NCBI GenBank assembly: GCA_000175855.1
Contig: ACYB01000040.1
Coordinates: 22,454 to 54,453 of the forward strand
Direction of reading: 5' to 3'
Length of the DNA stretch: 32,000 bases
DNA from: Raphidiopsis brookii D9
GTDB lineage: Bacteria > Cyanobacteriota > Cyanobacteriia > Cyanobacteriales > Nostocaceae
The translations under genes were made by a program, and so were the position numbers. This document shows positions 3,271 to 24,771 of the stretch, piece by piece. Position 1 is the stretch's first letter. Every line of letters starts with the position of its first letter. The notes beneath the pieces are model-generated. The model did not search any database. It was not told the origin of the DNA and saw only the letters and a program-made list of their open reading frames with translations.

Positions 3271-3945
3271 TTGATGACCAACCTAAAACTATATTTTGCC
3301 AAGGGATCCACCTTTTCTCAAAGGACCCGCGTTGTGTTACTGGAAAAAGGGGTTGAATTTACACCTATTGAAATTGATCTACAAAATAAACCGGAAATAT
3401 TCACCCAAACTTCTGCATACGGCAAGGTTCCCGCTATTAAGCATGGAGACTTAGCAATATACGAATCAGCAATTATCAATGAGTATCTAGAAGAAGTATT
3501 CCCTCAGCCAGCCCTATTACCCAAAGATCCAGGAGCAAAAGCATGGGCCAGAATTTGGATTGATTACGCTAATACGCGGCTAGTTCCAGCCTTTAATAAG
3601 TTACTGCGTGGTAAAAATAATGAGGAACAAGAGCAAGGGCGTAGAGAATTTTCAGAATCCTTACTGTATATTGAGAACAAAGGACTGGGACAAGTCTCCG
3701 GCAATGGACCCTACTGGCTAGGGGAAAATCTGAGTTTAGTGGATATTAGTTTCTATCCTTGGTTTGAAAGATTACCGGTTTTAGATAAATTCCGTAATTT
3801 TTCCCTTCCGGAAGAAACTCCCCGATTACAGGAGTGGTGGCAGAACTTGCGTCGTCGAGAATCAATTCAAAGTGTGGCTAATCCCACGGAATTTTATATA
3901 GATAGGTTTACTAGGCTGTTCGGATTAACAGGTCTATCAAAATGA
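3271..3945 (+). CDS. Glutathione S-transferase family protein (DHAR/omega-like, Ser in place of the catalytic Cys)
   Basis: 224-aa ORF. The track start is TTG 3271, but ATG 3274 is more likely. [18 protein letters not shown] resembles the DHAR/omega CPF[AS]QR motif with C replaced by [23 protein letters not shown] is the GST G-site signature. Confidence 0.8.
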
Positions 3946-3954
3946 AGAACTTGT

Positions 3955-4980
3955 ATGGCGCAATTTACCGACAATTTACTGCTCACACATGGAATTAGGC
4001 CGATAGTCACATTGACTATCTGGTTACTATGGTCACTGAGTAGTTGGCTATGGATAGATTTACCAGCTTTGGCAGTAAATAATCCTTGTCCGCAGGGCAT
4101 GATACTAATTCCCGGAGGTACCTTGAAAATGGGGACAGACAATTCTGTTTTTGCAGAAGAGAGACCCTCTAAGAATGTGACAGTTGATTCCTTTTGTATG
4201 GATAAATACGAAGTAACAAATGCTGAATTTGCTAAATTTGTTACAGCTACCGGGTATATAACAGTTGCAGAATTACCCCTGTCCAAGGAACAATTTCCCG
4301 ATCTAACTGAGCAACAAAGATCACCGGGATCTCTAGTGTTTAAAATGCCAAGACAGGGTGAAATTCCCTTTTTGAGTTGGTGGCATTGGCTTCCTGGGGC
4401 TAACTGGCAGCATCCCCTGGGCAATAAAAGCGAAATATTAGATAACTATCCTGTTGTCCACATAGCATATCAAGATGCCCTGGTTTTTGCTGATTGGTTG
4501 GGCAAGTCCTTGCCAACGGAAGCTCAGTGGGAATACGCTGCACGGGGTGGTTTAGAGGATGCAACTTATACCTGGGGTAATAAATATTCAGAAATAAAAG
4601 CTAACACTTGGCAGGGGACATTTCCGTTTCTGAACACTAAAGTTGATGGTTATGTAGGTCTGGCTCCAGTGGGTTCTTTCCCGGCTAACGGTTACGGATT
4701 GTATGATATGGCGGGTAATGTTTGGGAGTGGACTGTCGACTGGTTTACTGTAGAAGATAAACACTCTGTTAATCAAGTCTCAGAACATGAAATCTCAAAA
4801 ACAAGAAAAAGTTTTGATCCAAACAAACCTGGAGAAACTTTACTACATGTTATCAAAGGTGGCTCTTACCTATGTGCGCCCAATTACTGTAGTCGTTACC
4901 GTCCAGCTGCGCGGGAATCTCAAGCACCAGATACAGGGACGAATCACATTGGGCTTCGCCTGGTAAAAAATTTGTATTAG
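3955..4980 (+). CDS. Formylglycine-generating enzyme (FGE-sulfatase/SUMF1 family), exported
   Basis: 341-aa ORF with an N-terminal hydrophobic segment ending ALA|V. Contains YGLYDMAGNVWEW and the C-terminal GGSYLCAPNYCSRYRPAAR, the FGE CxxxxC active-site pair. It sits directly upstream of a Cys-type sulfatase. Confidence 0.85.
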   Translation: MAQFTDNLLLTHGIRPIVTLTIWLLWSLSSWLWIDLPALAVNNPCPQGMILIPGGTLKMGTDNSVFAEERPSKNVTVDSFCMDKYEVTNAEFAKFVTATGYITVAELPLSKEQFPDLTEQQRSPGSLVFKMPRQGEIPFLSWWHWLPGANWQHPLGNKSEILDNYPVVHIAYQDALVFADWLGKSLPTEAQWEYAARGGLEDATYTWGNKYSEIKANTWQGTFPFLNTKVDGYVGLAPVGSFPANGYGLYDMAGNVWEWTVDWFTVEDKHSVNQVSEHEISKTRKSFDPNKPGETLLHVIKGGSYLCAPNYCSRYRPAARESQAPDTGTNHIGLRLVKNLY

Positions 4981-5091
4981 TTCCCGAAATTGCCTATGGG
5001 AATTTTTGCCTCATTTTTCATACACGAGTTTATATACAATTTCATAGATAAGTTCATACACAAATTCAAAGCTTTATAATTAGGCAAGTCT

Positions 5092-7434: not shown

Positions 7435-7520
7435 CAAAAACTTTGGGTAGACAATTCCTATGAATCAAATTACCTCCCTTCTTTTCCCCATATTCGATAA
7501 AAATTGCATTCCTATTATTT

Positions 7521-8438
7521 GTGGTTGCCACAATGTTTGGCACTGGATTAAAACTAACTTTACAGGAAATTTGGCAACCATTAGCTAATACTCGTTTAGT
7601 GATATTTTCCTTGATCACAAATTTTTTGCTAGTTCCTGTTTTCGTGTATTTGCTTTTGACTGTAATATCTGTAACCGAACCAGTAAAAGATGGTTTTATG
7701 ATTATGGCATTAGCTTCTGGACCTCCAGCTCTACCAAAACTTGCAGAAATAGTCAAGGGTAATTTGGCCTTTGCTACTGGACTGATGATGCTATTAATGC
7801 TGGGTACGGTATTTTATCTGCCAATTACACTACCCTTCTTTATAGAAGGGGTGCAAATAACCCCTTGGGATATTGGTAAACCTTTGATATTTATGATGAT
7901 TATCCCTTTAGTGATTGGGCTATCGATTAAATTAATTAAATTTGAATCCGAAGATATAGTGATCAAACTGCAAGCAATTACTTTTCAAATATCTAACTTC
8001 GGGTTGCTATTAGGTTTGGGAGTGAGGTTGATAGTACATTTTGACGAAATTCTTCTTCTGTTGAAAACCGGTGTAATTTTTATCTGTGCTGTTTTTATTA
8101 TCTTTTCCTTCAGTGTGGGTTATTTGTTAGGTGGACCAGGCGTTGACACTCAAAGAGTTTTAGGCGTAGGAACTGCTCAACGTAATTTTGCTGCAGCATT
8201 ATTAATAGGTACAAGTAATTTTGATGATCCTAATGTTGTAAGTATCATTATGGTGACAAGTTTATTAATGATGGTTTCTGTGCTGGTTCTAGGAAAAAAT
8301 CTTACTGAACTGGAACCAGCTACCACGAAAAGAATTACAAATCTAAAGAGTTACAGATCTTTTGATTTCCACTTGTTGTACATTAATTCCATAAAATGTA
8401 TTAGTAAATACATTATTTCCTTTTCCCCTACTGCGTGA
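7521..8438 (+). CDS. Bile acid:sodium symporter (BASS/SLC10, SBF) family transporter, possibly 5'-disrupted
   Basis: 305-aa ORF from GTG 7521. MFGTGLKLTLQEI, ALASGPPALPKLAEIVKGNLAFATG and VGTAQRNFAAALLIG match the SBF pattern. The first helix seems to be missing. A plausible N-terminus, MNQITSLLFPIF, lies in another frame from ATG 7460. Confidence 0.65.
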   Translation: MVATMFGTGLKLTLQEIWQPLANTRLVIFSLITNFLLVPVFVYLLLTVISVTEPVKDGFMIMALASGPPALPKLAEIVKGNLAFATGLMMLLMLGTVFYLPITLPFFIEGVQITPWDIGKPLIFMMIIPLVIGLSIKLIKFESEDIVIKLQAITFQISNFGLLLGLGVRLIVHFDEILLLLKTGVIFICAVFIIFSFSVGYLLGGPGVDTQRVLGVGTAQRNFAAALLIGTSNFDDPNVVSIIMVTSLLMMVSVLVLGKNLTELEPATTKRITNLKSYRSFDFHLLYINSIKCISKYIISFSPTA

Positions 8439-8466
8439 AAATCCCCAGTTGTTATTGGGGATTTTC
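8437..8466 (+). terminator. Stem-loop at the end of the BASS gene (terminator-like)
   Basis: GAAAATCCCCA (8437-8447), an 8-nt loop, then TGGGGATTTTC (8456-8466): a perfect 11-bp stem that overlaps the TGA stop. The U-tract lies only inside the 3' arm, so the terminator call is tentative. Confidence 0.45.
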
Positions 8467-8493
8467 AGTAAAAAAAATCTATTTTTCTGCACG

Positions 8494-8547: not shown

Positions 8548-8643
8548 TCAGTAGATTTTATGTAGATTTTGTGTGAAGTTTGGGAGCAGCTAATCTGAAC
8601 ATTACCCAAGCGTAAGGAAAATTATCAATTAGGAGGTTTTGAC

Positions 8644-9450
8644 ATGGTGTCTCAGGTTAAGGGGATGAAATTAAACTTGGAGCGGTTAAGTAAGTCTTTT
8701 GGGACAAAGAAAGTATTGGAAAATGTGGATTTAGAAGTTCGTCCAGGAGAGTTCGTGGCAATTGTTGGTCGCAGTGGCTGCGGTAAAAGCACAATGTTGC
8801 GTTTAATTGCTGGATTGGAAGAAACTACTAATGGTAGTGTCCTTTTAAATAATAAGCATACAGAACAGCGAATTAATCCAAGTATTCGGATGATGTTTCA
8901 AGATGCCAGACTATTACCTTGGCAAAAAGTATTAACAAATGTTGAGTTGGGTTTATTGGGTTCTAACTCCCAGGTTTATGCAAAGCAAACTGCTTTACAA
9001 ATATTGCGCGAGGTAGGACTAGAAGACAGATCTCATGAATGGCCATCAGTTTTGTCCGGTGGACAAAGACAAAGAGTGGCTTTAGCCAGAGCTTTAGCAA
9101 GTAAACCCTCCTTATTACTACTAGATGAGCCTTTGGGAGCGCTAGATGCTTTAACGAGAATTGAAATGCAGCAATTAATAGAAAGATTATGGCAAGAACA
9201 GGGATTCACAGCACTCTTAATTACCCATGATGTAGAAGAGGCAGTAGTGTTAGCAGACCGTGTGGTTCTCATAGAAAATGGCAGCATTGTCCTGGACGAA
9301 AAAATTTCTTTACCCCGTCCGCGAGCCAGAGGTGATGCGGAATTTGCTAAGACCGTAGAGAAGATTCTAAACCGAGTTATGGGAGAACCAAAAATTCAGC
9401 GAGAGTTTGATTATGTTCTGACCACTGCCACTTCCTCGCTGCACAATTAG
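8644..9450 (+). CDS. ssuB: Aliphatic sulfonate ABC transporter ATP-binding protein
   Basis: 268-aa ORF. Walker [10 protein letters not shown], signature [15 protein letters not shown], Walker [13 protein letters not shown]. The NitT/TauT-type ATPase is followed by SsuA, SsuC, SsuD and SsuE homologs. Confidence 0.85.
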
Positions 9451-9479
9451 TTGTTAATTGAGTGTTAATTGAGTGTTAA
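9451..9479. repeat. 11-bp tandem repeat, about 2.7 copies (GTGTTAATTGA)
   Basis: TTGTTAATTGA / GTGTTAATTGA / GTGTTAA immediately after the ssuB stop. It contains the GTG (9473) that the ORF track uses as the ssuA start. Confidence 0.8.
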
Positions 9480-10636
9480 AAACACTAGTTTCTCATCTCA
9501 CAAGTTATTTAATGACTGACTTAATTATGAAAAGCATCATGAACAGTGTAAATGGTTGGCAAAATGAAGATCAACTAACTAGAAATATATCTGTAAGTCG
9601 TTCTTTGTTTGTCCTGGGCTATAGTTTTTTAGTTTTATCACTTACACTCTTTGGTTGCAATGGTTCTGGGAGTAACACATCGGTTAGTAATACGGACAGT
9701 AAAACTAATGGTTCCAGTAGCAATCAAAAAGTAATCAAAATAGTTCGTTCCAAACAACTCACCGCTCTAGCAGTATTAGAAAAGCAAGGTACTCTGGAGA
9801 AAAAATTGCAACCTTTAGGTTACAAAGTGGAGTGGCCAGAATTTGCCGCTGGACCACAGCAATTGGAGGCTTTAAATGCTGGTGGATTAGATATTGCTGC
9901 TACTGCTGAATCACCACCTGTTTTTTCTCAAGCTGCTGATGTACCCCTTGTTTATTTGGCTGCTAACTCTTCAGATGGACAAGCTATTTCTTTGCTGGTG
10001 CCAACTAAATCACCAGTGAAAACCCTTAAAGACTTGAAAGGTAAAAAAATTGCTTTTCAAAAAGCCTCTATCGGGCATTATTTAACTGTGAGGGCTGTGG
10101 ATAAGGAGGGATTAAAACTAAGTGATGTTGAATCTGTATTTTTACCTCCCCCAGATGCCAATGTAGCTTTTAGTCAAGGCAAAGTAGATGGTTGGTTTAT
10201 TTGGGAACCTTTTGTAACCAGGAATGTGCAAAACAAAGTTGGTCGTGTTTTATTAGATGGGGGTAACGGTCTGAGGGATACCAACAATTTTTACTCGACA
10301 AACCGTAAATTCTATCAAGAGAATAAACAGGCAATCAAAATTTTCTTGGAAGAGCTGCAAAAAGCACAAGTTTGGTCTAAAAATCATCCCAAAGAAATTG
10401 CCCAACTATTAGCTTCTGTGACGCAACTTGATCCTCCAACCTTAGAAAAAATGCACAGCAAGTATGATTTTTCTCTTGTGCCTATTACAGAATCAATAAT
10501 TAATAAACAACAGCAAGTTGCCGACAAGTGGTACAGCTTGGGATTAATACCTAAAAAGGTTAACGTTAGAGATGGTTTCTTGACACCTAAAGAATACGAA
10601 GAAATCACACCGCAAGAAGTGTTAGGTTCCAAATAA
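9473..10636 (+). CDS. ssuA: Sulfonate ABC transporter substrate-binding lipoprotein (SsuA/NMT1 family)
   Basis: 387-aa ORF. The real start is probably ATG 9512, 9527 or 9539. LSLTLFGC is a lipobox, followed by a Ser/Asn-rich linker. AAGPQQLEALNAGGLDIAATAESPPVF and LKDLKGKKIAFQKAS are typical of SsuA/TauA-type binding proteins. Confidence 0.85.
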   Translation: MLKTLVSHLTSYLMTDLIMKSIMNSVNGWQNEDQLTRNISVSRSLFVLGYSFLVLSLTLFGCNGSGSNTSVSNTDSKTNGSSSNQKVIKIVRSKQLTALAVLEKQGTLEKKLQPLGYKVEWPEFAAGPQQLEALNAGGLDIAATAESPPVFSQAADVPLVYLAANSSDGQAISLLVPTKSPVKTLKDLKGKKIAFQKASIGHYLTVRAVDKEGLKLSDVESVFLPPPDANVAFSQGKVDGWFIWEPFVTRNVQNKVGRVLLDGGNGLRDTNNFYSTNRKFYQENKQAIKIFLEELQKAQVWSKNHPKEIAQLLASVTQLDPPTLEKMHSKYDFSLVPITESIINKQQQVADKWYSLGLIPKKVNVRDGFLTPKEYEEITPQEVLGSK

Positions 10637-10657
10637 ATTTTTGTAAGGAGCAAATCC

Positions 10658-11706
10658 ATGAATTTTAATTTCCCATTACCTCGACGTACAGCTATCAAGA
10701 AGTTTGTTAAATATTCAGCCCTAGGCGCTCTACTTTTTACTCTTCCTATCACAGGCAATATTGTCCAGGCTGAAAATCCTCGTCTTGCAAATAAAACTGG
10801 CATTCAGACCAAAGTGGTGAGAATGGCTTACCAAACTTCTGGGGATATTGTTAAAATCAAGGGGGTGGTAGATAAACGCCTACAATCTTTAGGTATACAA
10901 GTTGAATGGTCTCCTTTTCCTGCAGGTCCCCAATTAATGGAGGCTATGAATGCCAACAGAGTTGATATTGGCACCGTGGGAGAAACTCCACCGATTTTTG
11001 CCCAAGCCGCCGGGGCTCAACTTACATATATTGCGGCGCGTAAACCAAGTAGGGGTGAAGGTAGTGCAATTGTTGTTCAGAAAGATTCCCCCATCAAAAC
11101 CCTTAAAGATTTAAAGGGCAAAAAGGTTGTCTTTCAAAAAGGTTCAGCAGCACATTATTTGCTATTGAGAGCTTTGGGTGAAGTGGGCTTAAAATATGGT
11201 GATATTCAACCTGTAAGTTTGACACCAGCTGAAGCTCGTGATGCTTTTATTCAGAAAAAAATTGATGCTTGGGTAGCTTGGGATCCTTTTATTGCCTTTG
11301 TTCAACAAACTGCCAATGCCAGGGTTTTAAGAAATGCTTCGGGAATTGCCACCCAAGGAGGGTTTTATATGACCAGACGGGATTTTGCTAGGGAAAATCC
11401 TGAACTTGTCAAGATCATCTTAGAGGAAATAGATAAACTAGGACAATGGGCTGAGTCTAATCGGGATGAAGTCGTCAAAATTCTCGCACCTGAGCTGAAA
11501 ATTGATCCATCAATTTTAAAAGTGGTGGTGGGTCGTCGTACATTCCGATTGCAAAAAATAACTTCTCCTATAATTTCTGAACAACAACGCATTGCTGACT
11601 TGTTTTATAATGAGGGGTAATACCAACAAAAATTGCAGTGCGCGAGTCATTTTTAACTCCTCAACAATACACAACTATTACACCAGCAAGAATCGGGAAT
11701 AGATAA
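10658..11706 (+). pseudogene. ssuA: Second SsuA-family substrate-binding protein, C-terminal frameshift (pseudogene or assembly indel)
   Basis: The 320-aa ORF ends ...DLFYNEG* at 11620. Re-reading G11617 (one base back, i.e. restoring a fifth G to the G4 run at 11614-11617) gives VIPTKIAVRESFLTPQQYTTITPARIGNR*, ending at 11706. This aligns with the paralog tail LIPKKVNVRDGFLTPKEYEEITPQEVLGSK*. The N-terminus LPRRTAIKKF looks like a twin-arginine signal. Confidence 0.8.
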
Positions 11707-11748
11707 TCCCTTCTATTAGTTGGTTCAGAATTCTGACTGTTTAAGGTT

Positions 11749-11793
11749 CCGGGTTAGTTGAAAAGTACCGTTATTTAAAAAGCACTAACTCGG
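11749..11793 (+). other. Intercistronic RNA hairpin between ssuA-2 and ssuC
   Basis: CCGGGTTAGT (11749-11758) pairs with ACTAACTCGG (11784-11793): 10 bp including one G-U pair, with a 25-nt loop. The 12-bp perfect palindrome TCAGAATTCTGA lies just upstream at 11725-11736. Confidence 0.4.
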
Positions 11794-11856
11794 AAATTAA
11801 TCTTAACCTGAATAATCTCAATTTTAACTTCTTAATCCCTCGATATCATCACAACA

Positions 11857-12720
11857 ATGATTAAAATATCCTCTGCTGAAACTGGAGACATTCCTGCCAG
11901 ATATGGAGTTATAAAAAGTCGTTCCTATTCCCGGCTGATTAAACTGGTGACTAAAAACCCTTACGTTCAATCTGCTATCCCTTGGTTAGTACCCATATCA
12001 ATTATTTTAATATGGCAACTTCTTTCCTCCCTAGGGGTAATTCCTAATCGAATTCTACCCGCTCCTTTAGCAGTACTAGCAGCAGCCATTAAACTGGGTG
12101 CATCGGGGGAGCTGTTTAGAAACATTGGTATTAGTGCAGCTAGGGCTATCTCTGGTTTTTTAGTGGGTGGCAGTATTGGCTTTAGTTTGGGCTTAATTAA
12201 TGGGATTTCTCCAATAGCGGAAAAGTTGATAGATACCTCTATTCAGATGCTGAGAAATATCCCAAATTTGGCTTTAATACCCCTGGTGATTTTGTGGTTT
12301 GGCATAGGTGATGAAGCTAGATTGTTTCTAGTTTCCTTGGGTGTCATGTTTCCTATTTATTTAAATACTTTTCATGGAATTCGCAGTGTTGATCCCGGAT
12401 TAATTGAAATGGGTAAAATTTATGGTTTAAACGCCTGGGGTTTATTTTGGCGAATTATTTTGCCAGGTGCTATGTCTTCTATTTTAGTGGGGGTTCGTTT
12501 TTCTCTGGGTATTATGTGGTTGACTCTTATTGTGGCGGAAACTATTGCTGCTGATTCTGGTATTGGTTATATGGCGATGAATGCTAGAGAATTTATGCAA
12601 ACCGACGTGGTAGTTTTAAGTATTCTACTATATGCTTGCTTTGGTAAATTAGCGGATGTTATAGCCAAATCCTTAGAAAGATATTGGTTACAGTGGAATC
12701 CAGGTTATTTCAAGACTTAG
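11857..12720 (+). CDS. ssuC: Aliphatic sulfonate ABC transporter permease
   Basis: 287-aa ORF, multi-pass membrane protein. It has the BPD_transp_1 EAA-like region (IEMGKIYGLNAWGLFWRIILPGAMSSIL) and sits between ssuA and ssuD. Confidence 0.85.
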   Translation: MIKISSAETGDIPARYGVIKSRSYSRLIKLVTKNPYVQSAIPWLVPISIILIWQLLSSLGVIPNRILPAPLAVLAAAIKLGASGELFRNIGISAARAISGFLVGGSIGFSLGLINGISPIAEKLIDTSIQMLRNIPNLALIPLVILWFGIGDEARLFLVSLGVMFPIYLNTFHGIRSVDPGLIEMGKIYGLNAWGLFWRIILPGAMSSILVGVRFSLGIMWLTLIVAETIAADSGIGYMAMNAREFMQTDVVVLSILLYACFGKLADVIAKSLERYWLQWNPGYFKT

Positions 12721-12811
12721 AGTTAGGAAGAGTAGGACTGAGCCACCAGTTTTTCGGTAAAGAATTATTAATTTTTTACTTTGTTTATGTGATACTGGAT
12801 TTAGAATCAAG

Positions 12812-12909
12812 TACAGTTTAACGATAAAGTAACCGAAGTTAAAGGCTAAGTATGGACCAATTAAATACAGTTTAATAAAAAAGTAACCGAATTTAAAAAA
12901 GCTAAAGTA
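12812..12909. repeat. Imperfect tandem direct repeat (period about 54 bp) in the ssuC-ssuD spacer
   Basis: Unit 1 is TACAGTTTAACGATAAAGTAACCGAAGTTAAAGGCTAAGTA (12812-12852). Unit 2 is TACAGTTTAATAAAAAAGTAACCGAATTTAAAAAAGCTAAAGTA (12866-12909). The repeat also shows as FKFGYFFIKLYLI / FNFGYFIVKLYLI in the spurious antisense ORF 12688-12954. Confidence 0.75.
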
Positions 12910-12924
12910 AGTCAGTGAGGAACT

Positions 12925-14082: not shown

Positions 14083-14098
14083 TAGAGGTTTTTCCAAT

Positions 14099-14683: not shown

Positions 14684-14702
14684 ACTTTAAGGAGTTGGTT
14701 AT

Positions 14703-15668
14703 ATGATAGACACCAAAAAATCAGTTTGGAAAACACTCAAAAGCAACAGGCTATTTATTTTAGGTCTAGCAGTTTTTACCTGTTTTTTGATTACCCCCGT
14801 ACTGCATTTACCAGCTTTAGGAAAGGTAACCAGTAGTAAGATTCAGTTTGTTGCTCCTAACTGGGTGGCTGAAAATAGTAAGGATCCAAATCTGAGAATT
14901 TTGGATGTAAGAAATTCGCCTCTGGACTATATTGATGGACATTTGCCTGGGGCGGTTAATATTGCCGACACGGCATTTCGCGGTCCGAGAGAGGGTTTGC
15001 CAGTGCAATATTGGGAAAATCGCAAATTAGGGGAAATATTTGCTAATTCAGGTGTCACCAATAACAGTCGAGTTTTAGTTTATTCTGATGGTCGCGATGT
15101 TCTAGGCGCCAGTATGGTAGCTTATCTCCTGGAACGTTCTGGAGTTAAAGACATCGCGGTATTAGATGGTGGTTACAAGGGTTACAATGCAGCATCGCAA
15201 ACAGTGACTAAAGTGTTTCCTAAATATAAGGTAGGTCAATTCACGGTTAGGGATAATCAGACTGTGCGTGTTTCCCTAAATGAGGTCAGAAAACTAATTG
15301 GTAAGACAGGGGTGAAATTTATTGATCCTAGACCTGCAGACTTGTTCCAAGGTAAGGAAAACATTTGGGTACGCAATGGACATATCCCCGGAGCAAAGAA
15401 TATTCCCTGGCCCACTTTTACCGATCCTCAAAATCCTCACAAGCTCAAGTCCTTAGAGGAAATTAAGAAGATTCTAGCTGACAAAAAAATTGCTCCCAAT
15501 GATGATATAATAGTCTCTTGCAGCACCGGTAGAGAAGCAACATTACAATATGTTGTACTCAAGCACTTGTTAGGTTATCCCAAGGTCAGGGTTTATGAAG
15601 GTTCTTGGACTGAATATAGCACTTACTCGGATTTACCTGTTGCTACCGGACCAGAAGAAGTAAGCTAG
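14703..15668 (+). CDS. Exported or membrane-anchored tandem-rhodanese sulfurtransferase (thiosulfate/3-mercaptopyruvate type)
   Basis: 321-aa ORF. The N-terminal hydrophobic segment is LFILGLAVFTCFLITPVLHLPALG. There are two rhodanese-like halves, with the active-site loop VSCSTGREAT only in the second. YEGSWTEY is the typical C-terminal motif. Confidence 0.8.
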   Translation: MIDTKKSVWKTLKSNRLFILGLAVFTCFLITPVLHLPALGKVTSSKIQFVAPNWVAENSKDPNLRILDVRNSPLDYIDGHLPGAVNIADTAFRGPREGLPVQYWENRKLGEIFANSGVTNNSRVLVYSDGRDVLGASMVAYLLERSGVKDIAVLDGGYKGYNAASQTVTKVFPKYKVGQFTVRDNQTVRVSLNEVRKLIGKTGVKFIDPRPADLFQGKENIWVRNGHIPGAKNIPWPTFTDPQNPHKLKSLEEIKKILADKKIAPNDDIIVSCSTGREATLQYVVLKHLLGYPKVRVYEGSWTEYSTYSDLPVATGPEEVS

Positions 15669-15724
15669 TTGGTTCACAACTGTTGATTGAAAACTTCTGT
15701 TTTGTCAATTTTGGGGATTAAGTT

Positions 15725-15898
15725 ATGAAATTAACATTCTTATTTTTTGCCGGACTACTGACAGCTTTTAGTGTCGTTGCTACGGTTGAAGCTAGTCAGT
15801 TTGCAGGTGGTTCGCCACAAAACGACCTAGTAGCCTGCACTAGGACTAAAGACCGTCGGCCATCAGATAATAAGGGTGAAAATCCCTCTAGGACTTAA
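15725..15898 (+). CDS. Hypothetical 57-aa secreted peptide (below the ORF-track cutoff)
   Basis: ATG 15725 follows GGGGA. Translation: MKLTFLFFAGLLTAFSVVATVEA|SQFAGGSPQNDLVACTRTKDRRPSDNKGENPSRT*. It has a clean Sec signal peptide with a VEA|S cleavage site. The hydrophilic mature part has one Cys. It lies on the same strand between the rhodanese and yeeE. Confidence 0.35.
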   Translation: MKLTFLFFAGLLTAFSVVATVEASQFAGGSPQNDLVACTRTKDRRPSDNKGENPSRT

Positions 15899-15977
15899 GT
15901 TGAGTTTTGTCATGGGAGGAATGTGGATATGGCTCAAAGCAAGAGTTTTTATCTAGCTTTCTCCCTTTTTTTCCTTA

Positions 15978-17192
15978 ATGAACTACTCATGCTCTAGGTG
16001 GACTTATATGACTAGTGCCTCTGACAACATATCTTTACGGGAATTCCACTCTCTAAACCCCCGTCCTCAAAAGTTGATTGTGACCATCGCCTTGGGTGTT
16101 TTAGTTGGAGCTGCTGTTTTGTTGTACAAGTATAGCTGGAGACAAAGTGTACTATTTATTATTGGTAGTTTGTTGGGTATAGCTCTGTATAATTCGAGTT
16201 TTGGTTTTGCATCTGCCTACCGTAAACTATTGTTAAGTAAAGACGGGAGAGGTATGTACGGACAGTTGTTAATGTTGTCTGTTGCTACCCTGTTGTTTGC
16301 CCCCCTGCTATCTGCTGGCAAAGTTTTTGGACAAGAAATAGAGGGAGCGATCGCCCCTATAGGAATATCAGGGATCATAGGTGCCTTCATCTTTGGCATT
16401 GGTATGCAATTGGGAGGGGCCTGTGGTTGTGGAACTCTTTATACCATTGGTAGTGGCAGTTATACAATGATTATTACCCTAATTACTTTTTGTTTAGGGG
16501 CTTTCTATGCTACTTTAACCCACGGATTTTGGTCTGGATTACCCAAAATTCCTCCCATTGTTTTAGGTGAAACTATTGGTTGGGCACCTGCAGTACTGAT
16601 ACAATTGACCATATTATTATTATTAGCAGTGGGACTAGGGATTTGGATTAAAAACAGCAATTCCATAGCCCAAAATACTCAATTTTCTCCCTGGTCAATA
16701 TTTACAGGGGCGATCGCCCTAGCGGTGCTCAATTGGTTAACCCTGCTAATTTCCGGCCACCCTTGGCGAATTACCTGGGGATTTGCACTGTGGACAGCTA
16801 AAGTTGCCATGTATTTAGGTTGGAGTCCCTCTAGTGGGGGGTTTTGGGATGGTGACAGTTCACTATCCAGTTCCGTATTTTCCGACATTAGCTCAGTGAT
16901 GAACCTAGGTATTATATTAGGTGCTTTACTAGCTGCTGCTCTAGCTGGTAAGCTCACACCACAAATACAAATTACTCCATCAAAAACTCTTGCTAAAGTC
17001 ACTGGTGGACTATTGATGGGGTATGGAGCCTTTTTGTCCTTTGGGTGTAACATAGGTGCCTTTTTTAGTGGCATTGCATCTACCAGTTTACATGGTTGGA
17101 TTTGGATCATTTTTGCTCTTTTAGGTACCTTTGTCAGTATTAAACTGCAAGCTCTATTTGATTCTCCACTAGATTTACCACCAATGGTTTAG
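15978..17192 (+). CDS. YeeE/YedE family sulfur-compound (thiosulfate-type) transporter
   Basis: 404-aa ORF; ATG 16008 is an alternative start. It is polytopic, with two Sulf_transp-type repeats carrying the conserved Cys motifs MQLGGACGCGTLY and FLSFGCNIGAFFSG. Confidence 0.8.
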   Translation: MNYSCSRWTYMTSASDNISLREFHSLNPRPQKLIVTIALGVLVGAAVLLYKYSWRQSVLFIIGSLLGIALYNSSFGFASAYRKLLLSKDGRGMYGQLLMLSVATLLFAPLLSAGKVFGQEIEGAIAPIGISGIIGAFIFGIGMQLGGACGCGTLYTIGSGSYTMIITLITFCLGAFYATLTHGFWSGLPKIPPIVLGETIGWAPAVLIQLTILLLLAVGLGIWIKNSNSIAQNTQFSPWSIFTGAIALAVLNWLTLLISGHPWRITWGFALWTAKVAMYLGWSPSSGGFWDGDSSLSSSVFSDISSVMNLGIILGALLAAALAGKLTPQIQITPSKTLAKVTGGLLMGYGAFLSFGCNIGAFFSGIASTSLHGWIWIIFALLGTFVSIKLQALFDSPLDLPPMV

Positions 17193-17239
17193 ATAAATTA
17201 GATAAACACGAATATCTTAGTAACTTAGTAACAAAATAA

Positions 17240-18538
<1,299 letters not shown>

Positions 18539-18582
18539 AGCTTATATATACTATCCGTCAATTCCCCGCTGTAGGTAATCAA

Positions 18583-19641
18583 ATGAGTTATCAGCACCTA
18601 ATTTCCCCAAAAACTCACTACTATAAATTAAGTGTGCCTTACCAACTAGAGAGCGGTACAATTCTAACTGGTGTTGAAATAGCATATCGCACTTGGGGAA
18701 CATTAAATTTAAATGGCGATAATGCAATCCTAATTTGTCATGCTTTAACTGGTTCAGCAGACGCAGATATATGGTGGGAAGGTTTATTAGGCAGCAACAA
18801 AGCATTGGACAATAATAAACACTTCATCATCTGTATTAACGTTTTAGGTAGTTGTTATGGTACTACGGGAGCAACCAGTATTAATCCAGAGACAGGAATC
18901 CCCTATGGTGGAAAATTTCCGGAGATTACTATCAGAGACATGGTTCGTTTGCAAGCTATCCTACTAATTAGGGAGCTAAGAATTAAATCTCTAAAACTAG
19001 TAATTGGAGGGTCTTTGGGAGGGATGCAAGTATTGGAGTGGGCACTACTATACCCGGATATGGTACGAGCGATCGCCCCCATGGCCACCTCTGGTAGACA
19101 TTCACCCTGGTGCATTGGGTTAAGTGAGGCCCAAAGACAGGCCATTTATGCTGATCCCAACTGGTTGGGGGGAAATTACACCCCAGAAAACCCACCAAAT
19201 CGGGGATTAGCTGTAGCTCGGATGATGGCCATGAGCACCTATCGTTCTTGGGAAAGTTTCCAGGAAAGATTTGGCAGAAACTATGACCAAGTAGCGGAGC
19301 AATTTACCATAGCCAATTATCTGCAATATCATGGTCAAAAGTTAGTAGAGAGATTCGATGCTAATACCTATATTACCTTAACCAGAGCGATGGACACTCA
19401 TGACATTGCCCAAGGTAGGGAATACAAAGCAGTTCTGCAAAGTATTAAACAACCTGCTTTAATTGTTGCTATTAATTCCGATATTTTATATCCACCAACA
19501 GAGCAGGAGGAAATGGCCAATTTAATTCCCCGTGGTGAACTGGTAAGCCTAAAATCAATATATGGTCATGATGCCTTTTTAATTGACACAATAGAACTTA
19601 ATCAGTTAGTTATTGACTTTTTGACGGTAATCCCAGATTAG
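18583..19641 (+). CDS. metX: Homoserine O-acetyltransferase
   Basis: 352-aa ORF. NAILICHALTGSA, the nucleophile elbow VIGGSLGGMQVLEW, and the C-terminal YGHDAFLID are MetX alpha/beta-hydrolase signatures. Confidence 0.9.
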   Translation: MSYQHLISPKTHYYKLSVPYQLESGTILTGVEIAYRTWGTLNLNGDNAILICHALTGSADADIWWEGLLGSNKALDNNKHFIICINVLGSCYGTTGATSINPETGIPYGGKFPEITIRDMVRLQAILLIRELRIKSLKLVIGGSLGGMQVLEWALLYPDMVRAIAPMATSGRHSPWCIGLSEAQRQAIYADPNWLGGNYTPENPPNRGLAVARMMAMSTYRSWESFQERFGRNYDQVAEQFTIANYLQYHGQKLVERFDANTYITLTRAMDTHDIAQGREYKAVLQSIKQPALIVAINSDILYPPTEQEEMANLIPRGELVSLKSIYGHDAFLIDTIELNQLVIDFLTVIPD

Positions 19642-19678
19642 GCTTTACAGCTGCACAGTATGATTTATAAATAATCTG

Positions 19679-21529
19679 CTAAATTAATGGACGAGCTGCA
19701 TCAGGTAAAAATCCACCTGCTTGCATTTTCCATAACTTATAGTAAGTGCCACCCAGTGCCATTAAATCACTATGAGAACCATCTTCAACAATGGATCCTT
19801 GATCAAATACCAAAATCCGGTCTAGATGGGAAATAGTAGATAACCGATGGGCCACCACAATCACGGTTTTATCATTCATGGCTAAATCCAGTGTTTCCTG
19901 AATTGCTTTTTCAGTAATAGAATCTAGACTGGAAGTTGCTTCATCTAAAATCAAAATTGGTGCATCCTTCAAAATAACCCGGGCGATGGCTATTCGCTGT
20001 CTTTGTCCACCAGATAATTTCACCCCACGTTCACCAACCAAAGAATAATAACCGTGGGTCATTTGAGAAATAAAATCGTGAGCATAAGCCTTGATTGTTG
20101 CCATTTTGACATCCGCATCTTCAGCATCTAAACGACCATAACGGATATTTTCTATTAAACTTCGATGGAATAAAGAAGGATCTTGAGGGATCAAACTAAT
20201 TTGTGAGTGAAGAGAATCTTGCGTCATTTGCCGAATATCTACCCCATCAATGAGAATCTTTCCGGATTGGGGGTCAAATAATCGTAAAATCAAATTAACA
20301 AAGGTCGATTTACCTGATCCAGAAAATCCTACTAATCCTACACGTTGACCTGGCTCAATTGTAACCGAAAGATTTTGAAACACCTTCTTCTCGCTTGAAT
20401 AACTAAAATTCACCTGGCAAAACTCAATGCTTCCTTGAGAAATTTGATGTGCAATTGCATTATCTTCATCAATCAATTCATGACCTTGAACAATTACATT
20501 AACTCCATTAGCTACATTGCCAATATGTTCAAAAAATTCGATAAATCTCCGACTTAAATTTCGGGCTTCACTGATAATTAATAGAGACAAACTAGTTGCT
20601 ACAACAAAATCCGCCGCCGTAATTAATCCTGAACTCCACAAAGATACAGAATAATACAAAGTAGAAATTTTTAAAATTGCAGCTGCAATAAATTGAAACC
20701 AACGAATTCTCTCCGAATACCCGTTAGCTTTCTTGACTTCTTTGAGTTCACACTTGAGTCGGTCATTCAAATAATCCCTTTCAAAACCTAATCGAGCAAA
20801 AAGCTTGGTACTACTGAGATTAGTGATTCCGTCAATAATAATACCTGTAGTTTCACTTCTTGCTGCTGATGCTCTACGAGAGTAAATTCGGCAACGAGTA
20901 GCTAACCAAAAAGAGATGCTGATGAAAAAAACTGCCCATGTCCCCACCAATGCTGCTAATGGGGGATAGGTGCGATAAAGCAAAATTGTGGATACAATAT
21001 ACACAATTATTAGAGACATAAATTCTGTAATGAGCATTTGCATTGTTTGGGTGACACCTAGGGAAGTTTCACCAATGCGGTGTCCTAATGCTCCAGCAAA
21101 ACTACTACTTAGATAACGATGGGAATGACATTGTAAATAAGCATAGAGGGAACGGACAATATGTTGTCGATGGATAGGATGAAGAACAATTTGTAATAAA
21201 CCTGCGGTTCGACCAAAAACTACCTCACCTATACTAAGAATAGTAAATAATATTAAAGGTTGTTTGATAACATTAAGTATTTCAATATTGCTAGTGTGAC
21301 TTGTTGTGACACTACGGATAATTTCACCAATAGCGTATGGCAACATAATTCCACAAGTAGCATGTAATATTTCTGATATTACCATTGCTACATACCACCA
21401 GCGAAACTGATTAACAAAATAACAAACAAATTTAAAAGGTGTATTAGGCAAATCTGGCGCATAAGGGTCACGCTGAAAAGATCGCCGATCCCTTTTTTGA
21501 GAGGACTTAGGGAAAATTAAATGCTTCAC
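19679..21529 (-). CDS. ABC exporter, fused permease/ATPase (type I, MsbA-like)
   Basis: 616-aa ORF with an N-terminal six-helix ABC_membrane domain. Walker A GFSGSGKST, signature [14 protein letters not shown], Walker B ILILDEATSSLD. Confidence 0.85.
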   Translation of the reverse strand: MKHLIFPKSSQKRDRRSFQRDPYAPDLPNTPFKFVCYFVNQFRWWYVAMVISEILHATCGIMLPYAIGEIIRSVTTSHTSNIEILNVIKQPLILFTILSIGEVVFGRTAGLLQIVLHPIHRQHIVRSLYAYLQCHSHRYLSSSFAGALGHRIGETSLGVTQTMQMLITEFMSLIIVYIVSTILLYRTYPPLAALVGTWAVFFISISFWLATRCRIYSRRASAARSETTGIIIDGITNLSSTKLFARLGFERDYLNDRLKCELKEVKKANGYSERIRWFQFIAAAILKISTLYYSVSLWSSGLITAADFVVATSLSLLIISEARNLSRRFIEFFEHIGNVANGVNVIVQGHELIDEDNAIAHQISQGSIEFCQVNFSYSSEKKVFQNLSVTIEPGQRVGLVGFSGSGKSTFVNLILRLFDPQSGKILIDGVDIRQMTQDSLHSQISLIPQDPSLFHRSLIENIRYGRLDAEDADVKMATIKAYAHDFISQMTHGYYSLVGERGVKLSGGQRQRIAIARVILKDAPILILDEATSSLDSITEKAIQETLDLAMNDKTVIVVAHRLSTISHLDRILVFDQGSIVEDGSHSDLMALGGTYYKLWKMQAGGFLPDAARPLI

Positions 21530-21630
21530 AAGAAAATTCTCGAAAGTTAAGGAAGTTACCTAGTTTTAATAGGGTTTAATGGGGAGCGCTAGAATTGGGC
21601 TTATAAAAATCTAATTAGGTTGTTCAGAAA

Positions 21631-21652
21631 TCCCCGGTTTAAAAACCGGGGA
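21631..21652 (-). terminator. Palindromic hairpin downstream of the amidohydrolase gene
   Basis: TCCCCGGTTT-AA-AAACCGGGGA: a perfect 10-bp stem located 58 nt after the stop at 21710. On the minus strand it is followed by TTTCTG, a weak U-tract. Confidence 0.5.
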
Positions 21653-21709
21653 GAAGTCAACTTTGAGGAGTGAGTTCATGACCAATAAGTCTGTAAACTG
21701 GTTTGGTTT

Positions 21710-23257
21710 TTAAACCGAGACTAAGTTTTGCTCCACTTTTTGTACTTGGTGTGATGCAATATTATTAACCTTAGACTCGATCACCGTACCTCGGAAGAAA
21801 TCAGGATTAGCTTGAGTATAGAATTTATATGGGTTTCTGAAGACGTATGACTGGAATTCATCCTCAGAAATCACACCTTCTTGGACTAGATCCCAACTTT
21901 CCGCTAAAGGATCCGTTAAATCGGGCACATCCCAGTGACCAACATCTGAAGAGTAAATGGCATTAATTTTTACATTTAGAGGGTTGGCCCGATCATTGAA
22001 CGCAGTGGCTATAGTTCGATCATCAGATTCAGACCCAAAGAAGAAACTATTCACCCAGCGATCGCGTATGTCTTCAATAGATTCAATTCCAGCAGCGGCA
22101 AAGTCTTCCAATTCACTACCCACAGGGGAACGACTATAACGATTAAAAGAGGAACCCAAAACAGTTTGAGTTAATTCTTCTTGACTGAGAGAATATCCTT
22201 CTAATAATTCGGTTCCGAACCTGATGAATAATTCATATAACTCATGGCTATTAGTCAAGTCTGGATTGTAATTTTGCAATCCTTTGAGATTACGCTTGGA
22301 GAATCGGTCTACCAAATGAATGTAAACGTGAGATCCCCAATCTGCACCACCCTCTAACATACCCACTCTTAATTGAGGAAAACGCTTGGTAACACCACCA
22401 AAAAACAATGCCTTGGCAAATGCTTGTGAACCATCTGCAAAATGACCAATATGGTTGTTCATATAATTGCTAATGGAAGACCGACCAGTCCAACCTTGAC
22501 TACCATAGTGGGTGGTGACGGGAACTCCTAACTCAACCAACTTAGCCCAGAATGGATCGTAGTCATATTCACTATCTATGCCGTAAAAATCTATATAGGA
22601 GGCATATTTAGCAATTTCTGGGTATTCCTCTGCTGGATACTTATCGGCGATCGCCCGAATTGGTCTTTTTACTCCACCGGGAATATTTGCCACTTTTAGA
22701 CCCAAGATTTTTACTGCAAACTCTAACTCTTCAATAGCTTCCTGAGGGTTATTCATCGGGATACCAGCAACTACTGTCAAACGATCACTATATTTACGAT
22801 ATAGATCCGCATGATAGTGATTAATTGCTCGTTGCAGTGCCTGACGATCTTCATTACTTGCTCCGGTGGGTGCCAAAACATTATTAGGGAAGAGTACGGA
22901 GTAGTCCGAACCTTGCTCTGCTTGACGCTCATAAAACAGTTCTGGTAAAGTGTAAGTAGCTAGATCCAAAGTATTCCGCGTCACTCTTGCCCACCAAGGC
23001 GAACGAATAGTACGATAATATTGACGCTCTTCAGGTGTTTGCTGATACCAATCTTTCCCTCTAACTTTAGAGTTAAGACGGGAAGACTCAGCTTTTCGCA
23101 ATGCATCTACTAGTCTTGATCCACCATAGTTAGCAATATAATCTTCTAATGCAGGAGTGAAATCATTAGTATGGACATCAGTATCAATCACTGGATAATT
23201 CAGCTTGGACTTAATGACAGCTGAACGAGAACTTTTGAGTCTACTATATTCAGTCAT
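21710..23257 (-). CDS. Amidohydrolase family protein (Amidohydro_2/ACMSD-like metal-dependent hydrolase), function unknown
   Basis: 515-aa ORF. The N-terminal VIDTDVHTND resembles the metal-binding DxHxH-type strand. Internal HYGSQGW and GGADWGSH fit the TIM-barrel metallohydrolase pattern. It is co-directional with the upstream LLM monooxygenase. Confidence 0.65.
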   Translation of the reverse strand: MTEYSRLKSSRSAVIKSKLNYPVIDTDVHTNDFTPALEDYIANYGGSRLVDALRKAESSRLNSKVRGKDWYQQTPEERQYYRTIRSPWWARVTRNTLDLATYTLPELFYERQAEQGSDYSVLFPNNVLAPTGASNEDRQALQRAINHYHADLYRKYSDRLTVVAGIPMNNPQEAIEELEFAVKILGLKVANIPGGVKRPIRAIADKYPAEEYPEIAKYASYIDFYGIDSEYDYDPFWAKLVELGVPVTTHYGSQGWTGRSSISNYMNNHIGHFADGSQAFAKALFFGGVTKRFPQLRVGMLEGGADWGSHVYIHLVDRFSKRNLKGLQNYNPDLTNSHELYELFIRFGTELLEGYSLSQEELTQTVLGSSFNRYSRSPVGSELEDFAAAGIESIEDIRDRWVNSFFFGSESDDRTIATAFNDRANPLNVKINAIYSSDVGHWDVPDLTDPLAESWDLVQEGVISEDEFQSYVFRNPYKFYTQANPDFFRGTVIESKVNNIASHQVQKVEQNLVSV

Positions 23258-23403
23258 TACCTTCTCCTTAGATAAATTGAGATAAATTATGGAAGTAGTG
23301 CTAACAGAAGAGTTGACAAGTTAGTTAATAAGCTAGTTAAAATTTATAGATACTGGGTAAATCAACACTCCACAGCACTTGAAACTCGTCATTACTCATT
23401 AGA

Positions 23404-24771
23404 TCAAACATAGGCAGGAATCAACATTTGATCTTTTTTCCCAGCAAATTGATTAAGTGGCCGACCTAACCCCAGATGTTCACGAAGAGTATTACCTTCG
23501 TATTCAGTGCGGAAAAGTTCCCGCTTCTGAAGAATAGGAACAACTAAATCAACAAAATCATCTAATCCTGTAGGGAGAACAGGTGGCATAATGTTAAAAC
23601 CATCAGCTGCACCATTGTTAAACCAATCTTCCAATTGGTCTGCAATAGTTTCAGGAGTACCAATAATAGTTCGATGACCCCTAGCTGTGGCCAAAGCCAT
23701 ATAGAGTTGACGCAAAGTCAAGGTTCCGCGATTAGTCAAATCCCTAACCAATTTGAGACGACTCTTGTTATTGTTGGTCTCACTGGGCAATTCAGGAGCT
23801 ATATCATCCAGAGAATAGCCAGATAAATCTACACCCTTATAATAGGTTGCCAGAATACCCCAGGCCACGTCAGGATGAATCAAAGACTGAATAAACTCAT
23901 ACTTCTCCAAAGCTTCTTCTTCCGTTCGTCCAATAACCGGAAAAGCACCGGGCATAATTTTCAGATCCTCTGGAGAACGCCCATATTTTGCTAGTCTACC
24001 TTTTATATCAGAGTAAAACTCCTGGGCATCCCTCAAAGTTTGATTGGCAGTAAAAATTACTTCTGCAGTACGAGCAGCTAACTCCCTTCCTGCTTCTGAA
24101 GCTCCAGCTTGCACAATTACCGGATAACCCTGGGGTGGACGACCTACGTTTAATGGACCTTTGACGGAAAAATATTTGCCTTTGTGATTAAGAACATGGA
24201 GTTTATCAGGATCAAAGTAAATACCTGATTCCCTATTTCGAAGAAAAGCATCATCTTCCCAACTATCCCACAAACCTTTGACAACTTCTACAAATTCCTC
24301 CGCCCTTTCGTAACGTTCTCCGTGTTCTGGATGATACTCTAATCCAAAATTAGCTGCCGCATTTTCATTCCCAGTGGTTACTACATTCCATCCTGCTCGA
24401 CCATTACTCAAATAATCTAAGGATGCGAACTTTCGTGCTAGGTTATACGGTTCCTCGTATGTCGTAGAAGCGGTGGCAATAAAACCGATACTTTTAGTTA
24501 CGGAGGACAAGGCTGCAAATAATGTCACAGGCTCAAAATGCACCAGCTTGCCATTGCGTTTTTGAGTTTCCGGTGTGCCTCTCCAAATTCCTGGACTGTC
24601 TGCTAGGAACACAGCATCAAACAATCCACGTTCGGCAGTTTGAGTTATTTTCCGATAGTGCTGAAAATTGGATCCAGCGTCTATTTGTGCTTCTGGGTGT
24701 CGCCAAGCGGAAACATGGTGACCAGTGGCTTGAATAAATGCCCCTAAATGAAATTTACGTTTTTTACCCAT
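23404..24771 (-). CDS. LLM-class FMNH2-dependent monooxygenase, NtaA/SnaA/DszA/SoxA subfamily
   Basis: 455-aa ORF. The N-terminus KFHLGAFIQATGHHVSAWRHPEA and the internal AGWNVVTT and GYPVIVQAGASEAGRELAARTAEVIFT are characteristic of the roughly 450-aa DszA/NtaA group of luciferase-like monooxygenases. Confidence 0.85.
   Translation of the reverse strand: MGKKRKFHLGAFIQATGHHVSAWRHPEAQIDAGSNFQHYRKITQTAERGLFDAVFLADSPGIWRGTPETQKRNGKLVHFEPVTLFAALSSVTKSIGFIATASTTYEEPYNLARKFASLDYLSNGRAGWNVVTTGNENAAANFGLEYHPEHGERYERAEEFVEVVKGLWDSWEDDAFLRNRESGIYFDPDKLHVLNHKGKYFSVKGPLNVGRPPQGYPVIVQAGASEAGRELAARTAEVIFTANQTLRDAQEFYSDIKGRLAKYGRSPEDLKIMPGAFPVIGRTEEEALEKYEFIQSLIHPDVAWGILATYYKGVDLSGYSLDDIAPELPSETNNNKSRLKLVRDLTNRGTLTLRQLYMALATARGHRTIIGTPETIADQLEDWFNNGAADGFNIMPPVLPTGLDDFVDLVVPILQKRELFRTEYEGNTLREHLGLGRPLNQFAGKKDQMLIPAYV

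Follow-up and report, generated by a model that had tools for sequence, protein, structure and literature searches.

Why are many proteins of a cyanobacterial gene island devoted to sulfur scavenging almost free of cysteine (Cys) and methionine (Met), and what can be learned from this about the genes of such an island? The question is raised by a 32,000-nucleotide stretch of Raphidiopsis brookii D9 (GenBank assembly GCA_000175855.1, contig ACYB01000040.1, positions 22,454 to 54,453 of the forward strand; G+C content about 40%), in the following called the window. An earlier reading of the same DNA, here called the original prediction, had noted extreme Cys and Met depletion in many proteins encoded at 3271-24771, interpreted it as sulfur sparing, and proposed it as a marker for regulon boundaries. 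In our analysis, the depletion was confirmed and its use as a boundary marker was not. We consider it likely that the window carries a sulfur-scavenging island whose soluble and periplasmic proteins were purged of Cys and Met, thereby lowering their sulfur cost under sulfur limitation.

Sulfur sparing was reportedly described by Mazel and Marliere in 1989 for cyanobacterial phycocyanin and by Baudouin-Cornu et al. in 2001 for sulfur-assimilation enzymes. Scott et al. are said to have dealt in 2007 with low-sulfur-content proteins of Pseudomonas putida, under a title relating sulfur content to the sulfur-starvation response. A generally low Cys and Met content of sulfur-acquisition proteins has been described as broadly observed (PMC7661421, PMC2940859, PMC8557817); the second of these papers cites both Baudouin-Cornu 2001 and Mazel and Marliere 1989, and in the third Cys and Met were tallied in desulfurization proteins. 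Sulfur sparing in sulfur-acquisition proteins is thus already established. New here are this instance and, as the sole somewhat novel lead, an amidohydrolase-fold family with its gene module. As in the known cases, the loss of Cys and Met is selective for proteins of sulfur acquisition or assimilation, affects several unrelated folds at once and would spare catalytically needed residues; unlike them, the effect is documented here, from sequence, over a whole cyanobacterial island together with its limits. A literature search found no publication on the locus.

To judge the depletion, open reading frames (ORFs) of at least 120 amino acids were collected from 80 Nostocales loci centred on metY. 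After removal of homologs of window proteins, the remaining ORFs were grouped into 381 families, which served as background. Their pooled composition (841 ORFs, initiator Met counted) was 1.03% Cys and 1.80% Met, while the combined Cys and Met content (C+M) of the families without the initiator Met had a median of 2.37%, a 10th percentile of 0.83% and a 5th percentile of 0.56%. In this distribution, the lowest ranks were taken by MetY (percentile 1.6-1.8), SsuE (1.6-2.1), the arylsulfatase (2), the glutathione S-transferase (GST) encoded at 3271-3945 (4) and the amidohydrolase (6). They were followed by the aldo/keto reductase (AKR; 10), the monooxygenase next to the amidohydrolase (10-11), the rhodanese (11-12), the GST-fold protein encoded at 1517-2737 (18-19), SsuA-1 and SsuA-2 (both 19-20) and SsuD (37-38). 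The remaining window proteins were at percentile 38 or above.

The eight proteins singled out by the original prediction (arylsulfatase, MetY, SsuE, GST, amidohydrolase, monooxygenase, rhodanese and SsuA-1) differed from the background with p=1.7e-5 (Mann-Whitney test). The p value was 7e-5 for 14 soluble or periplasmic island proteins taken without selection, and 0.02 for all 17 genes in 3271-24771. When the eight proteins were pooled, Cys was reduced by 3.0 log2 units (about 8-fold) and Met by 1.6 log2 units (about 3-fold), while the other 18 residues stayed within ±0.3 log2. For single proteins, the Poisson tail was 8e-7 (arylsulfatase) and 3e-4 (MetY). The depletion therefore exceeds chance and targets the sulfur amino acids, and the proteins named earlier stand out, as a set, against the 381 families. 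All residue counts given before were reproduced, except for a trivial difference in the ABC exporter (12 Met instead of 13).

How far the signal marks island genes was analyzed by defining membership through a canonical sulfur function or through recurrence in a related island of Pseudanabaena (see below). Eleven members were sulfur-poor: AKR, GST-fold protein, GST, arylsulfatase, SsuA-1, SsuA-2, SsuE, rhodanese, MetY, amidohydrolase and monooxygenase. Eleven others were ordinary: the formylglycine-generating enzyme (FGE), the SBF-family transporter, SsuB, SsuC, SsuD, YeeE, MetX, the exporter, the ABC-2 ATPase, the ABC-2 permease and MarR. The three clear non-members, namely RuvA, the BioF-like aminotransferase and the aldehyde dehydrogenase (ALDH), were ordinary without exception, as had been stated before for BioF and ALDH. 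The low-sulfur signal is thus specific, but its sensitivity is only about one half. Since it misses about half of the genes within the same operons and neighbourhoods, among them genes whose place in the ssu/ats operons is beyond doubt (ssuB, ssuC, ssuD and those for FGE, SBF and YeeE), it cannot be used to draw regulon boundaries.

The coordinates 3271-24771 are also not the limits of the island. The sulfur-poor AKR at 369-1412 lies outside this range and, like the ABC-2 and MarR genes, recurs in the Pseudanabaena island, where its ortholog (66% identity) has 0 Cys and 3 Met. Further to the left, contig NBYN01000058.1, which is 99.8% identical to the first 3 kb of the window, carries genes for a sulfur-poor 2-hydroxyacid dehydrogenase (C+M 0.95%), OprB porin (0.90%) and TauD (0.66%). 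These are interleaved, at 12448-21220 of the compared stretch, with genes for an ordinary FAD-binding flavoprotein (4.0%), ferredoxin (9.4%), nitroreductase (2.9%) and AhpC (2.5%). Judged from this contig, the sulfur-related region is patchy and extends beyond the window. What remains of the marker idea is that a very low C+M content is a specific pointer to a sulfur-scavenging function. It correctly flags two unannotated enzymes, the amidohydrolase and the monooxygenase encoded at 21710-24771, for which synteny agrees. The locus thereby provides a clean and quantified cyanobacterial example of elemental economy, including the limits of the signal.

The synteny evidence comes from several genomes. 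On plasmid ABRG53c of Pseudanabaena sp. ABRG5-3, a single island contains orthologs of 13 window genes: SsuE (51% identity), SsuB (62%), SsuC (71%), SsuA-1 (59%), SsuA-2 (67%), AKR (66%), GST (56%), monooxygenase (83%), amidohydrolase (80%), exporter (69%), MarR (57%), ABC-2 permease (69%) and ABC-2 ATPase (63%). It also encodes TauD, CysT/CysW and a sulfate-binding protein (Sbp). Enzymes and binding proteins of this island have a C+M of 0.34-1.04%, permeases, ATPases and MarR one of 2.0-5.5%. In Nostoc sp. MS1, the monooxygenase, the amidohydrolase, a flavin monooxygenase, a dienelactone hydrolase (DLH) and an AKR are all at 0.4-0.9%, and the 81%-identical exporter is at 2.6%. In Bordetella hinzii and Variovorax, the amidohydrolase gene heads an operon for an NMT1-type binding protein, two permeases and an ATPase, to which Bordetella adds a monooxygenase gene; C+M is 0.3-2.2% within these operons versus 2.7-6.6% in flanking genes. 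Caldimonas is similar, with a DLH gene and an exporter fragment (50% identity). The original prediction had tied the two enzymes to the sulfur-starvation response from composition; their link to sulfur scavenging is supported by synteny independently of composition. On the Pseudanabaena plasmid, their orthologs lie among ssu genes, TauD and CysTW/Sbp, while in Bordetella, Variovorax and Caldimonas the amidohydrolase gene is the first of a sulfur-poor operon that also encodes an SsuA/B/C-like importer.

Whether the depletion arose in this genome can be read from orthologs, and the answer differs between families. MetY of 120 Nostocales orthologs with at least 89% identity contains 0-1 Cys and 1-3 Met. 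The wider family, represented by 61 full-length sequences (50%-identity clusters, 37-58% identical to the query), contains 10 internal sulfur residues in the aligned columns (median), compared with 1 here. Only 8% of the representatives have at most one internal sulfur residue and 18% at most three, and sulfur-free ones come from unrelated taxa (Acidimicrobiales, Rhodocyclus, Absicoccus). No sulfur residue is conserved throughout the 61 sequences, and M60 of the window protein is not conserved either. From these counts it follows that the loss is tolerated, absent in most members and repeated in origin. Column 300, the single majority-Met column (59% Met), holds Val here.

The arylsulfatase gives a similar picture; its orthologs from cyanobacteria (120 sequences of about 760-830 residues, 69-97% identity) contain 1-4 Cys and 2-5 Met each. 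Its only Cys, C115 in the CSPTR motif (residues 115-119), occurs in each of 60 sampled orthologs and is by motif the expected formylglycine precursor, while M336 is not conserved. At residue 520, 58 of these 60 cyanobacterial orthologs have Met and the window protein has Ile, so that the purge may have gone one step further in this lineage. Both the MetY and the arylsulfatase alignment thus contain a Met column substituted here, as the original prediction had suggested should be looked for. Together with the amidohydrolase and monooxygenase comparisons described below, these data characterize the depletion as an old trait, common to an order, a phylum or a family; it is not a local adaptation of this genome. 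With this qualification, the interpretation as sulfur sparing is supported, the effect being specific and concentrated in sulfur-scavenging proteins.

The neighbouring metX behaves differently from metY. It adjoins metY on the 3' side in 77 of 80 Nostocales loci, and MetX is always sulfur-ordinary there (median 4 Cys and 8 Met). In the window, the two genes are separated by 44 bp without a terminator-like site and are probably co-transcribed. This gap was the only use made of a promoter and terminator scan of 15600-25100, in which counts were equal to the shuffle level. The two neighbours with opposite sulfur content seem to be under very different compositional pressure despite their probable co-transcription. 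The rest of the island seldom adjoins metY in other genomes; the arrangement of metY with the island is therefore lineage-specific. It had been argued that the exporter and metX are not under the pressure acting on the island. Their sulfur content is indeed ordinary, but they are not strangers to it: the exporter gene keeps its place beside the amidohydrolase gene in four genomes, and metX its place beside metY in 77 of 80 loci.

The amidohydrolase, which like MetY is 100% identical to a protein on record for R. brookii D9, was compared with 120 homologs (67-100% identity) belonging to cyanobacteria, Bordetella, Achromobacter, Variovorax, Caldimonas, Sorangium and Polyangiales. Without exception these contain 0-1 Cys and 1-5 Met, the proteobacterial ones being poorer still (median 2 Met). 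M266 is invariant in 30 sequences. The family is unusually conserved, its cyanobacterial members being 67-74% identical to those of Betaproteobacteria or myxobacteria, and its invariant residues include D25, D27, H29, H147, H149, H250, H269, H272, E302 and D438. Its gene usually adjoins an SsuABC-like importer. Annotation of the protein is limited: PF04909 matches with 42.8 bits (cut-off 26.4) over residues 133-305 only, no NCBIfam model matched, and sequence comparison with the PDB gave weak partial matches only (best E=3.6e-5). The predicted structure (predicted local distance difference test score 75, predicted template modelling score 0.77) has a TIM-barrel fold. In a fold search it matched PF04909-type decarboxylases and amidohydrolase-related dinuclear oxygenases with a probability of 1.0 at 13-16% identity. 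As a match of a predicted model, this would be compatible alike with hydrolase, decarboxylase or oxygenase chemistry and gives the family level, not the function.

The monooxygenase matches TIGR03860 over the complete model (609 bits, cut-off 279.7, positions 1-422 of 422). Its closest PDB entries are YtnJ/MoxC (E=6e-121) along with nitrilotriacetate monooxygenase, followed in order by DszA, the alkane and EDTA monooxygenases, and DmoA. DszA, after which the protein had been labelled earlier, is thus not its nearest solved relative. Low sulfur content is general in this subfamily: in 65 metagenomic homologs (45-86% identity), C+M has a median of 1.77%, compared with 2.91% in the neighbouring proteins (p=3e-11), and Cys is absent from half of the homologs.

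Taken together, the amidohydrolase family, the NtaA/DmoA-type monooxygenase, the SsuABC-like importer and the fused ABC exporter may constitute an undescribed cross-phylum pathway for sulfur release from an organosulfur compound, with an N-acylated aminosulfonate as candidate substrate. We put this forward tentatively, as an idea that is plausible but somewhat short of probable. If it is true, the family-wide sulfur depletion would be the functional clue identifying this pathway. In any case, a strongly conserved sulfur-free amidohydrolase-fold family, whose gene context suggests an organosulfur role in cyanobacteria and proteobacteria, is the most useful by-product of the analysis. The fused exporter accompanies the amidohydrolase in four genomes from two phyla, namely Raphidiopsis, Nostoc MS1 (81% identity, 14890-16719 of the compared stretch), Pseudanabaena (69%, 18132-20111) and Caldimonas (50%, partial, 3-620). 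An exporter is an oddity within a nutrient-scavenging module. The ABC-2 and MarR genes are divergent from the monooxygenase gene here and from the amidohydrolase gene on the Pseudanabaena plasmid, where their orthologs (57-69% identity) lie at 12383-14586 of the compared stretch. From this context, MarR could be the local regulator of the module.

Low Cys and Met contents might also be inherited within each family, by structure or phylogenetic inertia, without a link to sulfur limitation in this organism. This would fit the depletion of the amidohydrolase homologs across phyla, the low content of the NtaA/DmoA subfamily overall and the fact that MetY and arylsulfatase depletion is common to all close orthologs. 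The original prediction had itself named a family property in orthologs as the alternative, and this part has a divided outcome: the MetY family is mostly sulfur-ordinary, the amidohydrolase homologs are depleted in 120 of 120 cases, and the monooxygenase subfamily is itself poor. Several results weigh against our interpretation as sulfur sparing. No sulfur-rich homolog was among the 120 amidohydrolases, so that a contrast within this family cannot separate adaptation from intrinsic composition. The window monooxygenase is at the 26th percentile of its already sulfur-poor subfamily and only at about the 10th percentile of the background. In Sorangium, the amidohydrolase alone is sulfur-poor and its neighbours are not. 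The background is a proxy, consisting of metY neighbourhoods rather than the genome's own proteome. Finally, a search of 15 intergenic regions for a shared promoter motif (10-14-mers, 1-3 mismatches, both strands) revealed none clearly above shuffles, the best 14-mer occurring in 8 regions versus a shuffle maximum of 7. As to the background, it is probably on the conservative side, metY neighbourhoods being populated by sulfur-poor families such as TauD. Against inheritance within families, moreover, the depleted families have unrelated folds and share as only common trait a role in sulfur acquisition; sulfur-free MetY members are scattered over a mostly ordinary family; and in Bordetella, Variovorax and Caldimonas the depletion tracks operon boundaries, not families, with even the permeases being low. 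Inheritance without a link to sulfur limitation thus appears unlikely.

Resistance to oxidation instead of sulfur saving is another conceivable reason, since Cys and Met are easily oxidised and could be avoided in the periplasm or in the presence of reduced flavin and oxygen. Several of the depleted proteins indeed leave the cytoplasm (arylsulfatase, SsuA, rhodanese) or work in FMNH2/O2 systems (SsuE, monooxygenase), and an AhpC gene is close to the island in the near-identical contig NBYN01000058.1. However, the cytoplasmic non-redox proteins MetY, GST and amidohydrolase are among the most depleted ones, the flavin monooxygenase SsuD is not depleted, and the oxidation-prone residues Trp, Tyr and His are even slightly enriched (+0.15 to +0.28 log2). 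This explanation seems still more unlikely than inheritance within families. It is hardly credible that a chance fluctuation was inflated by choosing low-sulfur proteins afterwards. The eight proteins were picked after inspection, and a C-terminal fragment of CobN/Mg-chelatase at the right end of the window reaches 0 Cys and 7 Met (1.4%) without a sulfur link, but the unselected set of 14 proteins and the Poisson tails for arylsulfatase and MetY remain far outside expectation, and the pattern recurs in genomes independent of this one. Both chance and a low-complexity bias of a general kind were rejected.

In the preferred interpretation as sulfur sparing, the island would combine sulfate-ester hydrolysis (FGE, arylsulfatase), sulfonate import and desulfonation (ssuBAACDE), a rhodanese, a YeeE-type transporter and direct sulfhydrylation (metY, metX) with the conserved module of NtaA-type monooxygenase, amidohydrolase-2-fold enzyme, ABC exporter and ABC-2/MarR. 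Those proteins that are made in quantity while sulfur is limiting would be under selection to cost little of it, and the purged soluble and periplasmic proteins would therefore be cheap in sulfur just when it is the limiting nutrient. Consistent with this, unrelated folds sharing one physiological role are all depleted, and the compositional split between soluble and membrane proteins recurs in unrelated genomes. Some of the residues retained lie at known functional motifs or invariant positions, namely arylsulfatase C115, rhodanese C273, the lipobox-like C62 of SsuA-1 and amidohydrolase M266; others, such as arylsulfatase M336 and MetY M60, vary among orthologs. The purge would not have reached membrane subunits, ATPases, the regulator and the enzymes FGE, SsuD and MetX, presumably due to lower abundance or structural need. 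Conversely, a higher abundance of the soluble proteins may explain why they are purged and the membrane, ATPase and regulatory proteins are not. The island is presumably induced by sulfur limitation. The features of the window are given in Table 1.

Table 1. Annotated features of the 32,000-nucleotide window with supporting models and sulfur amino acid content (C+M, combined Cys and Met content; aa, amino acids).
Feature	Coordinates	Strand	Model	Sulfur content
Aldo/keto reductase (AKR)	369-1412	-	Pfam PF00248	1 Cys, 3 Met in 347 aa; sulfur-poor
GST-fold protein with CPFC motif	1517-2737	-	Pfam GST_N_2 and GST_C_2	3 Cys, 3 Met in 406 aa; moderately sulfur-poor
Glutathione S-transferase (GST)	3271-3945	+		0 Cys; Met only at N-terminus
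Formylglycine-generating enzyme (FGE), sulfatase maturase	3955-4980	+	Pfam PF03781, E=1.6e-75	4 Cys, 6 Met; C+M 2.9%, ordinary
Arylsulfatase, 780 aa	5092-7434	+	Pfam Sulfatase	1 Cys (C115), 2 Met
SBF-family membrane transporter	7521-8438	+	Pfam PF01758	C+M 4.6%, ordinary to high
ssuB, ssuA-1, ssuA-2, ssuC: sulfonate-type ABC importer	8644-12720	+	Pfam	
ssuD (luciferase-like monooxygenase) and ssuE (FMN reductase)	12925-14683	+	Pfam	
Two-domain rhodanese	14703-15668	+	Pfam PF00581	Beyond N-terminal segment only C273 and M138
YeeE/TsuA-like sulfur-compound membrane transporter	15978-17192	+	Pfam PF04143	C+M 3.7%, ordinary
metY, O-acetylhomoserine sulfhydrylase, 430 aa	17246-18538	+		0 Cys, 2 Met
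metX, homoserine O-acetyltransferase	18583-19641	+	NCBIfam NF001209, 399 bits (cut-off 331)	4 Cys, 10 Met
Fused ABC exporter (membrane domain and ATPase)	19679-21529	-	Pfam	6 Cys, 12 Met; ordinary
Amidohydrolase-2-fold enzyme, 515 aa	21710-23257	-	Pfam PF04909	0 Cys, 4 Met
NtaA/DmoA-family FMN-dependent monooxygenase	23404-24771	-	TIGR03860	0 Cys, 5 Met
ABC-2 exporter ATPase and permease, MarR regulator (outside 3271-24771)	25021-27152	+	Pfam	Ordinary
RuvA, BioF-like aminotransferase, aldehyde dehydrogenase (ALDH)	right of 27152			All ordinary
CobN/Mg-chelatase C-terminal fragment, 499 residues	30494-31993	-		0 Cys, 7 Met; C+M 1.4%

A known system of matching content is the ssu/ats set of E. 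coli and Pseudomonas (SsuEADCB, AtsA), with which the window shares an SsuA-type binding protein, SsuB and SsuC, SsuD, SsuE and a Cys-type arylsulfatase. Including the sulfatase maturase, this set is complete in the window with Pfam scores well above the gathering cut-offs. The window differs from the E. coli and Pseudomonas genes in its gene order and in having two SsuA paralogs. Its run of genes moreover takes in metY-metX and those for an aerobic FGE, a rhodanese and a YeeE-type transporter, and the window encodes no CysB/Cbl-type LysR regulator. For organosulfur salvage, the Bacillus subtilis ytmI operon likewise combines flavin monooxygenases, an amidohydrolase and an ABC importer. The monooxygenase at 23404-24771 resembles its YtnJ/MoxC, but the ytmI-operon amidohydrolase is an M20 peptidase, whereas the window enzyme has the PF04909 fold. 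A cluster for N-acetyltaurine utilisation, naaR-naaS-naaABB'CC', is known from Ruegeria and Cupriavidus (PMC4334477). In Variovorax and Bordetella, the genes follow a similar order (regulator, amidohydrolase, binding protein, two permeases, ATPase), the likeness being one of gene order only; a kinship of the amidohydrolase with NaaS may be considered as a lead.

Within the ssu genes, the SsuA binding proteins are sulfur-poor past their N-terminal segments, while the ATPase SsuB (3.0%) and the permease SsuC (3.5%) are ordinary; the Pseudanabaena orthologs of these four proteins (59-71% identity) show the identical split. In SsuA-1 (9473-10636), which contains C62 and M327, M327 is the sole sulfur residue past C62. 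SsuD has 1 Cys and 7 Met (2.1%) and is not depleted, and SsuE (14099-14683) has no Cys and only the initiator Met. C27 of the rhodanese falls within the N-terminal hydrophobic segment. For the YeeE/TsuA-like transporter, the NCBIfam TsuA and YedE matches scored under their cut-offs. An Rfam scan of the window gave no matches. The CobN fragment indicates that moderately low values also arise in proteins without a sulfur link.

Near metY in Nostocales, recurrent sulfur-poor families comprise a SAM-dependent methyltransferase, a Tat-signal DLH, TauD, a class II aldolase, two short-chain dehydrogenases and an old-yellow-enzyme homolog. A sulfur-poor acyl-CoA-dehydrogenase-like protein found there adjoins another NtaA-type monooxygenase. 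For the GST, the real start codon is likely the ATG at 3274, in agreement with a gene call of 223 amino acids. Its orthologs are depleted as well, with 0 Cys and 1-2 Met in four Nostocales (72-78% identity) and 1 Cys and 1 Met in Pseudanabaena.

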